Assembly (NCBI RefSeq): GCF_054482525.1
Contig: NZ_CM137006.1
Reading direction: 5' to 3' (one strand)
Length of the DNA stretch: 64,000 nt
Positions 22,001 to 28,000 of the stretch are shown here, in pieces. Every line of letters begins with the position of its first letter. The first letter of the stretch is position 1. Position numbers: made by a program.

Positions 22001-25000
22001 CAGGTTACGCAGTGAAACCGATCGCCGGTCGCTGTGGCAGCAATATCGACCTCGTCAGCCATCATGAAGAGGTGCTGGACAAAACCAGCGGTAAATTTGC
22101 CGAGCAGAAAAACATCTATCAGCAACTGTGGTGTTTGCCGAAAGTGGACGGTAAATACATTCAGGTATGTACCTTCACCGTTGGCGGCAACTACGGTGGG
22201 ACGTGTTTGCGCGGTGATGAATCACTGGTCATCAAAAAAGAGAGTGATATTGAACCGTTAATTGTGGTGAAAAAGTAATACATGTTGTAGCAACCCCGTA
22301 CTGATTATGAAGAATAATCAGTACGGGGATTAATCAAAATATTCAATATTTATATATTCCAATATTTATTCATTTCATATGTGAATATATTAACCAGTGG
22401 AATACCTGTGTTTTGATTATTTCTAAAGGTTTTGAATGAATGCTTATTGTCTGATACACAAGAAATAACACTCTTTTTATCGTTAAAAAATGATATTTCA
22501 CTTTGCCCATGCCGTTAAAGTCACTGATAATGCGTCCGTTCGTAAATTCAAAATGGCGTAATCTAATATATGCTAAATTTATTTGTTGGCCTTGATATAT
22601 ACACAGGGCTTTTGTTATTGCTTGCTCTGGCATTTGTGTTGTTCTACGAAGCAATCAATGGTTTTCATGACACGGCGAATGCGGTGGCAGCCGTTATTTA
22701 TACTCGTGCCATGCAACCACAACTTGCTGTGGTGATGGCGGCATTTTTTAACTTTTTTGGCGTGTTATTGGGCGGACTTAGCGTTGCCTATGCCATTGTC
22801 CATATGTTGCCAACCGATTTGTTGCTGAATATGGGGTCAACCCACGGCCTGGCGATGGTCTTTTCCATGCTGCTGGCGGCGATTATCTGGAACCTGGGAA
22901 CGTGGTTCTTCGGTTTACCGGCCTCCAGTTCGCACACCTTGATTGGTGCGATTATCGGCATCGGTTTAACCAACGCGCTGTTAACCGGCTCATCGGTGAT
23001 GGATGCGTTAAACCTGCGTGAAGTGACCAAAATTTTCTCCTCGCTGATTGTTTCCCCTATCGTCGGCCTGGTCATTGCGGGAGGCCTGATATTCCTGCTG
23101 CGACGTTACTGGAGCGGGACGAAAAAGCGTGACCGTATTCACCGCATTCCGGAAGATCGCAAAAAGAAAAAAGGCAAACGTAAACCGCCATTCTGGACGC
23201 GTATTGCGCTGATTGTTTCCGCTGCGGGCGTGGCGTTTTCGCACGGCGCGAACGACGGACAAAAAGGGATCGGCCTGGTAATGCTGGTACTGGTGGGGAT
23301 TGCCCCTGCTGGCTTCGTCGTCAATATGAATGCGTCCGGCTATGAAATTACCCGTACCCGCGATGCCGTTACCAACTTCGAACACTACCTGCAACAGCAT
23401 CCTGAACTGCCGCAGAAGTTGATTGCGATGGAACCTCCATTGCCTGCAGCATCGACTGATGGCACGCAAGTAACAGAGTTTCACTGTCATCCGGCAAATA
23501 CCTTTGATGCTATTGCGCGCGTTAAAACGATGCTGCCAGGCAATATGGAAAGTTACGAGCCGTTAAGCGTGAGTCAGCGCAGCCAGCTGCGCCGCATTAT
23601 GCTGTGCATCTCTGATACCTCCGCGAAGCTAGCGAAACTGCCAGGCGTCAGTAAAGAAGACCAGAACCTGCTGAAAAAACTTCGCAGCGATATGTTAAGC
23701 ACCATTGAGTACGCTCCGGTGTGGATCATCATGGCGGTAGCACTGGCGCTCGGCATTGGCACCATGATTGGCTGGCGTCGTGTAGCGATGACCATCGGTG
23801 AGAAGATTGGTAAGCGCGGCATGACGTATGCGCAAGGCATGGCGGCACAAATGACGGCGGCAGTGTCTATCGGTCTTGCCAGTTATATTGGGATGCCCGT
23901 CTCCACAACACACGTCCTCTCGTCTGCAGTTGCAGGGACGATGGTGGTGGACGGCGGTGGGTTACAGCGTAAAACGGTAACCAGCATCCTGATGGCGTGG
24001 GTATTTACTTTACCGGCGGCAATTTTTCTTTCTGGTGGGCTGTACTGGATAGCATTGCAGTTGATTTAACCTTCCTGAAAATGCCCGGTCCTGGCGATCG
24101 GGCATTTCCATTTTTGACTAGTGATAACCACGCGCGGTCATAAAATCCGTAATCGCTTTTTCTGCATCAACCAACACCTGTTCCAGTGGCTGATTGGCAT
24201 CGATATCAACCAGTTGTGCACCACCAAAGGTTAACTGTGGCGTTATGGCAATCTTCCTCGCCAGCGATTCCCGTTTATGGTCGGGTTTACGTGCACAGGC
24301 AACTTCAAGGTCAACATTGAGTTTGATGACCAGATCAGGCTTATGGCTCGCCATCCAGTGAAACGCTTTACGTTCCTGGCTTGCCAGCCATGAGACAAAA
24401 CGACCACCTTCAACGTTAGGTGGGAACACCGTACCATCGTAAGCGCCAGGAATTTGGTCCTGAGGATAACGGTCGGTTAGAACAATTAACCCGCGACGAC
24501 GACAGGCAAGCATATGACGAAAGCGCAGTAAGCGACGGGCGACAAACGCTGTAATTACCAGCGCCGGAACTGGTCCAGGCAATTTTTTTGCTGTTTTCAC
24601 CTGATTTCGTTCAATTGTTTTATGTAAGGATTTTCCCATCAACGGTAATTTTGTCACTGCACGACCGACATTTCCGGCCTGTTTTCCTAAATGAACTCTT
24701 TCGGCAGCACCATATTTTTCGACAACGGTAATAAGATGTTCACACACCGTTGACTTGCCTGAACCATCGCTACCAATAACGGCAATTAATGGAGGTGTTA
24801 TTGACTGCATGAATATATCCTTTAATTTAAATATCCATTAAAAATATTTATTTGGTTAATATGTTTTTATGAAAGCGTAATTCAGGTCAATGTCACAATT
24901 AACCATTGTCACAATAAGGTTGAACGGATATTCTGAGCACGGACCACGTAATATTCAATACATTATTTACTGCCGGGTTTTTCGTGAATCAACGTAATAT

Positions 25001-28000
25001 GTCAATAATTAATTCCACGCCAGTGCGTGTTATTGCCATTGTAGGATGTGATGGTTCAGGTAAATCGACCCTCACGGCAAGCCTGGTAAATGAACTGGCA
25101 GCAAGAATGCCAACAGGGTAATGACTCCAACTTATTGATAGTGTTTTATGTTCAGATAATGCCCGATGACTTTGTCATGCAGCTCCACCGATTTTGAGAA
25201 CGACAGCGACTTCCGTCCCAGCCGTGCCAGGTGCTGCCTCAGATTCAGGTTATGCCGCTCAATTCGCTGCGTATATCGCTTGCTGATTACGTGCAGCTTT
25301 CCCTTCAGGCGGGATTCATACAGCGGCCAGCCATCCGTCATCCATATCACCACGTCAAAGGGTGACAGCAGGCTCATAAGACGCCCCAGCGTCGCCATAG
25401 TGCGTTCACCGAATACGTGCGCAACAACCGTCTTCCGGAGACTGTCATACGCGTAAAACAGCCAGCGCTGGCGCGATTTAGCCCCGACATAGCCCCACTG
25501 TTCGTCCATTTCCGCGCAGACGATGACGTCACTGCCCGGCTGTATGCGCGAGGTTACCGACTGCGGCCTGAGTTTTTTAAGTGACGTAAAATCGTGTTGA
25601 GGCCAACGCCCATAATGCGGGCTGTTGCCCGGCATCCAACGCCATTCATGGCCATATCAATGATTTTCTGGTGCGTACCGGGTTGAGAAGCGGTGTAAGT
25701 GAACTGCAGTTGCCATGTTTTACGGCAGTGAGAGCAGAGATAGCGCTGATGTCCGGCGGTGCTTTTGCCGTTACGCACCACCCCGTCAGTAGCTGAACAG
25801 GAGGGACAGCTGATAGAAACAGAAGCCACTGGAGCACCTCAAAAACACCATCATACACTAAATCAGTAAGTTGGCAGCATCACCCAATACAGGTGCCAAA
25901 CGGTGTTAACCCGTTGTCACTAAATTGCAGTCGCTCGCCAGCAAGGCGCGCATATTTATCGTATAGCCCCATTATTTATTCTCCAGCCATGGAAGTAGAG
26001 TTTCCATTAATTGCGCAGGGGTTTTGACATCCAGCAGAATATTAATAGGAATGGAAATATCGAATCTGTCTTCCAGCATCATTAAGAGATCCATCACTTT
26101 GATCGACTCCAGGCCAAGATCGTTGACGAGATCGCTGTCGGGCTTAATTTCCACACCGTTTTCGACCAAATCCTGTAAACAGGAAAGGATGTAATCCATT
26201 ACTATTTCACGATTTACCATAGAAACGTTAACACACCTTTAAACAAGACAATCAAAATAGCCCGTTGCGTAATGCGTGTTCCAGGCTAATCCCGGGAAAC
26301 CAATTAATATCTTCAGAAATACGGTTATTACTTGCCGACCAGTCGGCGTGGGTTAATTCACGAATTTTCGAGCGGGTCAGCATAGGTTCTTTACCTGCCA
26401 GGCGACTCAACGCGGTACTGATATCCGCAAGGCCGGTGAGTACCGGCAGAGGAATGCCAACCATTCGCACGGAACCGCAACGGGCGTCGGCGGCAAGTTG
26501 CTGTACGCGTTGCCAGTCATAGCCGCCGACGACGCCATCGCATAATTCATAGGTTTGCGTCTGTATAGTTTCGGCGCTTAACCACTGACCCACTGCTTGC
26601 GCGAAATCGGTGACGTGCAGAAAAGAGAGCTGTGTATCTGGCGCACCAAGTCGTGGCAGCAGGCCGCGCAGCATCCAGTCAAACAGCGGTTTTAACTCTT
26701 TATCGCCGGGACCATACACGGCTGTCGGGCGAAAAACGCCCAGCGTAATTTCGTCCGCCATTGCTGCCAGTCGTTGCTCGGCGACGTATTTGGATTTTGC
26801 ATACCAGGAGAGCTCGGGATGGCGCGCCGCCAGCGAAGAGATAAACAGAAAACGTTGGCAAAAGCCGCTCTCTTTTGCTGCTTGCATCAGGCGCAGGCTG
26901 CCGTCAACGTTACAGCGGGTGAAAATCTCTTCTTTGTGCCCGCGCACTTGCCCGGCGCAATGGACCACTACGCTGGCTCCGGCAACCAGCTCGCTAAGTG
27001 AATGAGTATCTTCCAGCGAACCGCGCACCCAGGTGAGATTATCATTGACGTGAGCGCGGGCAGTACGCGTCAATGCGCGAACGTGAAAGCCGCGGGCGAG
27101 CAGGTTATCGATAATATATTTACCGATAAACCCGGTAGCGCCCGTCACCGCGACAGTTTGATTCATGCCAGGGATTCCTGCACATTAAGACTGGCAGCAT
27201 AAGCCTTCTGATAACGTTTTTTCGCTTCCGCACGGGCAGGCTTGCCGGAGGACGTTCGGGGAATACTGTGGGGCGGCAACAGATCGATAGCCGCGGTCAC
27301 GCCAAATTCGCTTTGGATCCGTGCCGCCAGCGCGTGGATAAGCTGCCCGCGACGTTCTTCGTCGCTGATCCGACACTGGATCTGCAAAATGATTTTTTCC
27401 TGGGCGGTAACAAAAGCAATCGCATCGCCAGAATGAATTTCCGGTTCCTGTTCCGCTATATATTCAATATCCTGCGGCCAGATATTACGGCCACGAATAA
27501 TAATCAGATCTTTAATGCGTCCGGTGACATACAGATAACCGTCCAGCAGATAACCGAGGTCGCCGGTGTCTAACCAGCCCGTCGCGGCAATCTCGTCTTG
27601 CGAAACCTGGTCGCCAAAGTAACCGCTCATCAGACTGGGACCGGAGATGCAAATATGGCCTACCACACGTTCCGCGACCGGCATACCTGCTTCATTGCGG
27701 ATTTCAATACCATGTTCCGGCAACGCTTTGCCGCAGTTGACGAAAGTCGATACGGCGCGTGTCTCTGCACCCGGCGCGACGGCTTTACCCTGATATTCGA
27801 GGATGTCGCGATCCACTTCGTTAACCACAACCCCGGAGGCTTCATCAGAGAAGCTGACAGCCAGCGCATTTTCTGCCAGTCCGTAGCACGGCATGAAAGT
27901 TTTATCGTCAAAGTTGACCTGACGGAAACATTCAGCGAATTGATGGAGTTGTTCTGCGGAGATGGGTTCTGCACCAATACCAGCGACGCGCCAGCAGGAA

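Follow-up and report, generated by a model that had tools for sequence, protein, structure and literature searches.

A natural IS1-associated deletion between yghS and spt and its nested relatives in Escherichia coli

IS1 between the remnants of yghS and spt

The DNA studied here is a 64-kb stretch of contig NZ_CM137006.1 from the NCBI RefSeq assembly GCF_054482525.1; this whole stretch is referred to as the window, and its coordinates are used throughout unless another locus is named. Its sole copy of the insertion sequence IS1 is complete and stands between the 5′ stubs of two convergent genes, yghS and spt, the latter being the gene for serine palmitoyltransferase (Table 1). The right and left terminal inverted repeats of the element (IRR and IRL) agree at 18 of 23 positions, and the length and the repeats fit the IS1 family (~768 bp and ~23 bp, respectively). 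Identical DNA carries the RefSeq label 'IS1A family transposase, programmed frameshift', and the element is 100% identical to annotated IS1A in the genomes of strains 2452, CFSAN061762, RS571, 1008S13 and MSB1_9I.

The original prediction, which was made from the sequence of the window, held that IS1 separates the 5′ stubs of two convergent genes without a target-site duplication (TSD), and this is confirmed by the present analysis: the flanking 9-mers, TGCCAACAG on the yghS side and CAATACAGG on the spt side, are not repeats of each other, and there is no direct repeat of 8-10 bp at the ends of the element. A hidden or degenerate TSD was considered and rejected, since a comparison of 8-12 bp on either side yields ACAG alone in common, and since both flanks are native sequence that lies 7,458 bp apart in an intact genome. 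The absence of a duplication is informative, because each of five simple IS1 insertions that other genomes carry in this part of the chromosome has a duplication of 8-9 bp, i.e., GGCTTTTGT in pitB of strain SLK172, TAATATTC in the yghT-yghS spacer of the same strain, CGTACACCA in an integrase gene of CFSAN061762, and, in 2023CK-01509 and 21368, respectively, CCCGTTGTC and CGGTGGCGG at the 5′ end of spt. Without a TSD, the element in the window is still a member of the IS1 family, but it is not in the state of a simple insertion.

The yghS stub comprises 44 codons and 1 nt when counted from the GTG at 24984, which is the start used in RefSeq, and the 39 codons originally given for it hold if the ATG at 25000 is the start. 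The stub has kept the Walker-A motif alone and is annotated as an incomplete pseudogene in the genomes that carry the allele. The minus-strand gene on the other side had been described as unnamed, 29 codons long and coupled to the acyl carrier protein (ACP) gene; the length and the coupling stand, whereas the gene can now be named as spt, the start of which overlaps the stop of the ACP gene by 1 nt, the two being translationally coupled. Read into IS1, either stub adds a Gly and then meets a stop.

Strain SLK172 (NZ_CP017631, locus L002), in which the yghS-to-spt interval is uninterrupted, served as the intact reference. The IS1 of the window replaces 7,458 bp that correspond exactly to L002 13394-20851, with the left flank ending at 13393 and the right flank resuming at 20852. 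The window is collinear with SLK172 on both sides, i.e., through gss, pitB and yghT on the left and through the genes for ACP, an epimerase and a fatty acyl-AMP ligase, followed by yghO and glcC, on the right, and both flanks are native and have the order and orientation of the intact genome. The 7,458-bp separation of the flanks in SLK172 and their collinearity there support the IS1-mediated deletion that had been predicted. The deletion takes the 3′ 581 nt of yghS, the 3′ 1,085 nt of spt and six whole genes: a yghR-like gene, a yghQ-like gene ('lipopolysaccharide biosynthesis'), an 825-bp hypothetical gene, a YtfJ-family gene, and lptF-like and lptG-like permease genes. The expectation that yghR and yghQ were missing is thus borne out for both, but it understated the extent of the loss; the further expectation that the 3′ end of the fatty acyl-AMP ligase operon was missing proved correct, the ligase gene being the first and the truncated spt the last gene of that operon.

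The interval was scored as present in a genome when at least 80% of its 7,458 bp was found at one place, and by this measure it is present in 4,089 of the 5,426 complete E. coli genomes that formed the comparison set, while about one quarter of these genomes are without at least 80% of it at one place. Two observations had been named beforehand as contrary to a deletion, a genuine 8-9 bp repeat at the IS1 ends and loci in which the two short open reading frames (ORFs) are natural neighbours. There is no such repeat, and naturally short, adjacent ORFs are ruled out, as yghS has 237 and spt 390 codons in SLK172, the two genes are full length and well apart there, and the interval is present in 4,089 of the 5,426 complete genomes. 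K-12, which had been put forward as the intact reference, does not qualify as such, since K-12-type laboratory strains hold just the first ~2,485 bp of the interval.

Table 1 Features of the window at and around the IS1 element
Feature	Position	Strand	Remarks
yghT, 230-amino-acid ORF	24118-24810	-	Intact; RefSeq yghT on identical DNA of 2452 and AH50; last undisturbed gene left of the deletion
yghS, 5′ stub	24984-25116	+	Identical to the N-terminus of SLK172 YghS (237 amino acids)
Left flanking 9-mer TGCCAACAG	25108-25116		IS1 target site in yghS, presumably the copy that survived
IS1A, complete, 768 bp	25117-25884	-	No mismatch to the IS1 consensus at either terminus
IRR of IS1	25117-25139		Left end in window orientation
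insB′ ORF	25132-25635	-	From ORF analysis
insA, 91-amino-acid InsA ORF	25554-25829	-	From ORF analysis
A6C -1 frameshift site (AAAAAAC)	25572-25578	-	
IRL of IS1	25862-25884		Right end in window orientation
Right flanking 9-mer CAATACAGG	25885-25893		Native spt sequence; no repeat of the left flank
spt, 5′ stub, 29 codons and 1 nt	25972-25885	-	Identical to the first 29 residues of SLK172 Spt (390 amino acids)
Specialised ACP gene (acpR-type), 82-amino-acid ORF	25972-26220	-	Intact; WP_000248097.1 on identical DNA; name by homology in PMC9386255
NAD-dependent epimerase/dehydratase gene (epi), 304-amino-acid ORF	26252-27166	-	Intact; WP_001077167.1
Fatty acyl-AMP ligase / acyl-ACP synthetase gene (aasR-type)	27163-28887	-	Intact; annotated at the AH50 locus 22664-24388 on identical DNA

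Distribution of the allele and larger deletions from the same yghS junction

Both junctions are found, base for base, in five of the 5,426 complete genomes, i.e., in 2452 (human, China), AH50 (poultry, China), 20A24 (wastewater, Japan), and GN03139 and GN03551 (both bloodstream, USA). The IS1 of GN03139 and GN03551 is 99.9% identical to that of the window, and the other carriers examined have an IS1 that is 100% identical. None of the five is identical to the window throughout. AH50 equals the window over 24022-35657 and is ~2% divergent to the left of there, and the group formed by 2452, GN03139 and 20A24 matches the window from ~20713 rightwards, except for one single-nucleotide polymorphism (SNP) at 23106, and diverges leftwards. 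The allele thus lies on a shared haplotype block, the edges of which were reshuffled by recombination and differ among strains, and it is therefore inherited, and neither an artefact nor recurrent. In the part of the window from 19347 to 24021, the density of SNPs relative to the carriers shifts sharply, at ~20712 for the 2452 group and at ~24021 for AH50, and these shifts mark homologous-recombination boundaries near the deletion allele.

Nine genomes have the yghS::IRR junction to the base, and only five of these nine also have the exact IRL::spt junction. In the remaining four, a 100%-identical IS1 occupies the same position in yghS, with its IRL end joined to more distant DNA: upstream of sslE in RS571, just beyond the integrase gene of the pheV island in MSB1_9I, inside that integrase gene in 1008S13, and to an IS3 remnant in CFSAN061762. 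Five distinct endpoints on the IRL side are thus represented across the nine genomes. In three of the four genomes with larger deletions the genes past the junction have the normal chromosomal order and orientation, and these deletions are hence collinear and not inversions; in CFSAN061762, the IS3 remnant, gene fragments and a second IS1 lie between the junction and the integrase gene. A fixed IS junction combined with graded opposite endpoints is the classic signature of IS-mediated adjacent deletion, and we interpret the nested series as the work of one anchored IS1 that gave rise to deletions repeatedly. RS571 and MSB1_9I each have a right junction that occurs in no other genome. A resident IS1 at either of these two endpoints, which would point to recombination, was also considered; none was seen there, and both junctions are private to their respective genomes.

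Other IS1 elements have entered the same region. The two simple insertions in spt that served as TSD controls have the same orientation and lie 21 bp and 25 bp from the junction in the window, an IS1B is found 87 bp deeper in spt in at least 12 genomes, and another IS1B insertion 98 bp deeper in three genomes. On the yghS side, an IS1B lies 74 bp deeper in the gene in an enterotoxigenic E. coli O6:H16 lineage, and there are further insertions in yghS at +121 and +449 bp and one more in the spacer between yghT and yghS. The yghS-spt region looks like an IS1 hot region, or like a cluster under relaxed selection.

The 9-mer at the left junction has been used by another IS1 as well. In strain ET776, the IRR end of an IS1 abuts TGCCAACAG, which is followed by the intact remainder of yghS, and strain ES9 is alike as judged from its hit pattern. 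On its other side, the IS1 of ET776 borders DNA just downstream of gss; the strain has lost pitB, yghT and the start of yghS. Since this IS1 has the opposite orientation to that of the window and differs from it by 3 SNPs, the ET776 structure is an independent event, and TGCCAACAG is a real, repeatedly used IS1 target. The possibility that ET776 represents the reciprocal product of a single inversion with the lineage of the window was rejected, because the same IRR end adjoins the 9-mer in both, where a single transposition would have left different ends, and because the IS1 variant is different. The original prediction had suggested a search for an IS1 copy with the matching half-site; the window holds no IS1 besides the one described here, and the half-site in ET776, although of the kind sought, belongs to an independent IS1 in another lineage. 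In ET776 (L007 4267-5034) and in strain MB51 (L008 4313-5080), IS1 lies at the same base downstream of gss (window 22332), in opposite orientations; the right junctions of the two are 26 bp apart in yghS (window 25108-25134), and both strains are without pitB, yghT and the start of yghS. For the use of one site downstream of gss in both orientations we have no explanation beyond that of a hot spot.

The sequence of TGCCAACAG and the bases just upstream of it (25096-25116) contain TGCCAAC and TGGCAGCA, which are matches of 7-8 nt, in opposite senses, to the IRL terminus of IS1 (25862-25884). Such matches might explain why the TGCCAACAG 9-mer was hit twice, and older work on hot spots of IS1 and Tn9 reportedly noted homology of this kind to the IS ends.

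A second IS1 is present in 2452 (L001 13370-14137). It is inverted relative to the first and has no TSD, and it joins window position 28868 to position 57610, thereby bringing a capsule-like ABC transporter cluster directly up to the 5′ end of the fatty acyl-AMP ligase gene. The further loss in this strain amounts to ~28.7 kb and includes yghO, the glc operon, sslE and the gsp-beta type II secretion genes.

Origin of the deletion

Adjacent deletions mediated by IS1 have been textbook knowledge since the 1970s and were later explained by intramolecular replicative transposition; the classic examples, in the gal region, are said to have been described by Reif and Saedler in 1975. The allele described here resembles these deletions in that one IS1 is kept, there is no TSD, one junction is constant with the other endpoint varying, and the lost DNA adjoins the IS. 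It is unlike them in that it comes from natural isolates and not from selected laboratory mutants, in that the part played by the transposase is deduced, and in that no simple-insertion progenitor was found among the genomes and contigs searched (see below). In the E. coli long-term evolution experiment, IS copies without TSD have been attributed to adjacent deletion or to recombination between IS copies, and deletions there start at resident (fixed) IS copies and often enlarge stepwise (PMC11708052), a mode of growth that is paralleled by the nested series at yghS. Compared with that study, where time series for 14 IS150 events prove that insertion came first (PMC11708052), the window has IS1, and no ancestral sample.

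IS1 is almost certainly responsible for the loss, whether by a deletion anchored in yghS, by recombination between two IS1 copies, or by a deletion anchored in spt. The original prediction had left the choice between adjacent deletion and IS1-IS1 recombination open, and our data lean, short of proof, towards a one-step adjacent deletion anchored in yghS, to which we assign a probability of about 0.55. By this route, IS1 would have inserted in yghS at the 9-bp target TGCCAACAG, with the IRR end facing the start of the gene. The transposase InsAB′ would then have driven intramolecular replicative transposition, in which the IS ends attack a second site of the same chromosome, beside CAATACAGG in the 5′ end of spt. 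With the topology that yields a deletion, the DNA between the IS and the target would be expelled and lost in a circle that contains one IS copy and does not replicate, and the chromosome would retain one IS1, with the old yghS junction on its IRR side and a new spt junction on its IRL side. Since an old junction would thus be kept and a new one formed, a direct repeat around IS1 would not be expected. We infer both this order of events and its dependence on the transposase.

Several observations weigh against this route. Chimeric queries were built for the two reciprocal junctions that progenitors should have had, CAGCATCACC-TGCCAACAG-AACACA (IRL, TGCCAACAG and the remainder of yghS) and CTTCAT-CAATACAGG-GGTAATGACTCC (the remainder of spt, CAATACAGG and IRR); a match in a single piece was required in complete genomes and an exact match in metagenome contigs. 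The simple insertion yghS-TGCCAACAG-IS1-TGCCAACAG-yghS was not found in the 5,426 complete genomes or in the metagenome contigs, which counts against a deletion anchored in yghS and does not disprove it. The reciprocal spt junction was not found in these genomes and contigs either, and none of the 5,426 complete genomes has an IS1 at CAATACAGG whose far side borders native spt, so that the missing progenitors weigh equally against a simple insertion in yghS and against a second copy in spt. Furthermore, the end sequence is identical to that which homologous recombination of two directly oriented IS1 copies would give, several of the carrier genomes are rich in IS1 (35-40 places), and, the 5′ end of spt being an IS1 hot region, a transient second IS1 exactly at CAATACAGG is plausible. 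Finally, no copy of the 7,458-bp segment is present elsewhere in the 64-kb window, a result that holds for the window and excludes relocation only in part.

RecA-dependent homologous recombination between directly oriented IS1 copies at TGCCAACAG in yghS and at CAATACAGG in spt would delete the interval and one of the two IS1 copies, and the remaining IS1 would be a hybrid flanked by half of each duplication, a product indistinguishable from the structure observed. The supply of IS1 is ample, with 35-37 places in the carriers 2452 and 20A24, and other genomes have been hit by IS1 repeatedly and independently in yghS as well as in the 5′ end of spt, the two simple insertions of the same orientation lying no more than 25 bp from the spt junction. 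However, neither reciprocal junction was recovered from the 5,426 genomes or the metagenome contigs, and five right endpoints on one left junction would need five separate, unseen and correctly oriented IS1 insertions, for which reason we consider recombination possible but unlikely. There is also no mosaic of variants in the IS1 of the carriers, which is 100% identical except in GN03139 and GN03551; this is only weakly informative. The IS1 of the carriers differs from neighbouring IS1 copies at 1-5 positions. Alternatively, IS1 may have arrived first at CAATACAGG, with a leftward adjacent deletion into yghS creating the TGCCAACAG junction and the larger deletions of the relatives following later from the IRL side. 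The number of events would equal that of the yghS-anchored deletion, simple insertions at distances of 21 and 25 bp mark the 5′ end of spt as a regional hot spot, and TGCCAACAG, being targeted by another IS1, is an equally possible target of intramolecular attack. We nevertheless judge a start in spt to be improbable, since it needs deletions from both ends of one IS1, whereas events on the IRL side suffice when the anchor is in yghS, and since the spt junction is confined to five genomes that also have the yghS junction, which is present in four more; nor does any of the complete genomes have IS1 at CAATACAGG and native spt on its other side.

That there was no real IS1 deletion, and that the structure reflects an assembly collapse over two IS1 copies or an IS1 that entered an unrelated deletion, is scarcely credible. 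IS copies are classic sites of misassembly. For IS1 entry, it has been proposed that some IS copies enter DNA breaks during the formation of deletions, without TSD (PMC11708052). Against both possibilities, five complete genomes that were assembled independently, with origins in China, Japan and the USA, share the two junctions base for base, and the allele lies on a shared haplotype block with recombination boundaries that vary by strain.

The deletion anchored in yghS may be taken further, in a reading that we regard as doubtful: TGCCAACAG would be an IS1 hot spot determined by its sequence, at which a resident IS1 deletes one-sidedly and always from the IRL end, and, as a separate matter, the repeated hits in the region could reflect selection against a sphingolipid-like envelope pathway and not neutral decay. 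If the hot-spot part were true, natural isolates would offer a ready series for the study of target choice and end bias in intramolecular transposition of IS1.

Consequences for the spt cluster

In E. coli B, the cluster ECD_02850-02854 consists of yghO/aca, aasR, epi, acpR and spt, which have been discussed as genes for sphingolipid precursors of the rhodobacterial type (PMC9386255). In the window, the genes for ACP, the epimerase and the fatty acyl-AMP ligase, as well as the truncated spt and yghO, agree with this cluster in gene order and RefSeq product names. Unlike in E. coli B, spt is cut to 29 codons in the window, and the committed step is missing. As judged from the sequence, yghS and spt are null alleles, and the putative sphingolipid pathway is left without its committed first enzyme, with aasR, epi, acpR and yghO intact. 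It may be speculated that the lost LptF/G-like permeases, the YtfJ-family and YghQ-like proteins, and the P-loop proteins YghR and YghS were part of the same envelope-lipid system.

In SLK172 (L002 13261-25370, of which the part retained corresponds to window 25972-30400), the spt-acpR-epi-aasR operon and yghO face a convergent operon that encodes three P-loop 'dTMP kinase-like' proteins, a YghQ-like membrane protein, a YtfJ-family protein, and paralogues of LptF/LptG, the permease of the lipopolysaccharide exporter. An intact locus of this type could constitute a dedicated system for lipid export or modification. The fatty acyl-AMP ligase gene of SLK172 (L002 22130-23818) has an internal stop, and copies of IS1 lie in pitB and between yghT and yghS in this strain; SLK172, too, has probably lost the pathway, by another route than the deletion in the window.

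K-12 has likewise lost part of the same cluster. Its breakpoints differ from those of the window: with the first ~2,485 of the 7,458 bp retained, yghS, yghR and yghQ are kept, and the part with the lptFG-like genes and spt is absent. An IS5 (insH) presumably lies between yghQ and the yghO remnant in K-12, and the IS family at that locus would then differ from that of the window.

The phenomenon as such is known, the same allele is already contained in five RefSeq genomes in the form of pseudogene fragments, and nothing is changed with respect to IS1 or to the mechanisms of deletion; the natural series of nested deletions and the repeated use of one 9-bp target are minor curiosities. With regard to annotation, the short ORFs beside IS1 are remnants of yghS and spt, and the strain, which is without six further genes, is predicted to be unable to carry out the serine palmitoyltransferase step. 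With regard to genome evolution, the locus provides a clean natural case in which IS1 stays in place and related strains have lost differing amounts of the DNA on one of its sides, and it adds to the evidence that this cluster is frequently inactivated in E. coli, K-12 included.

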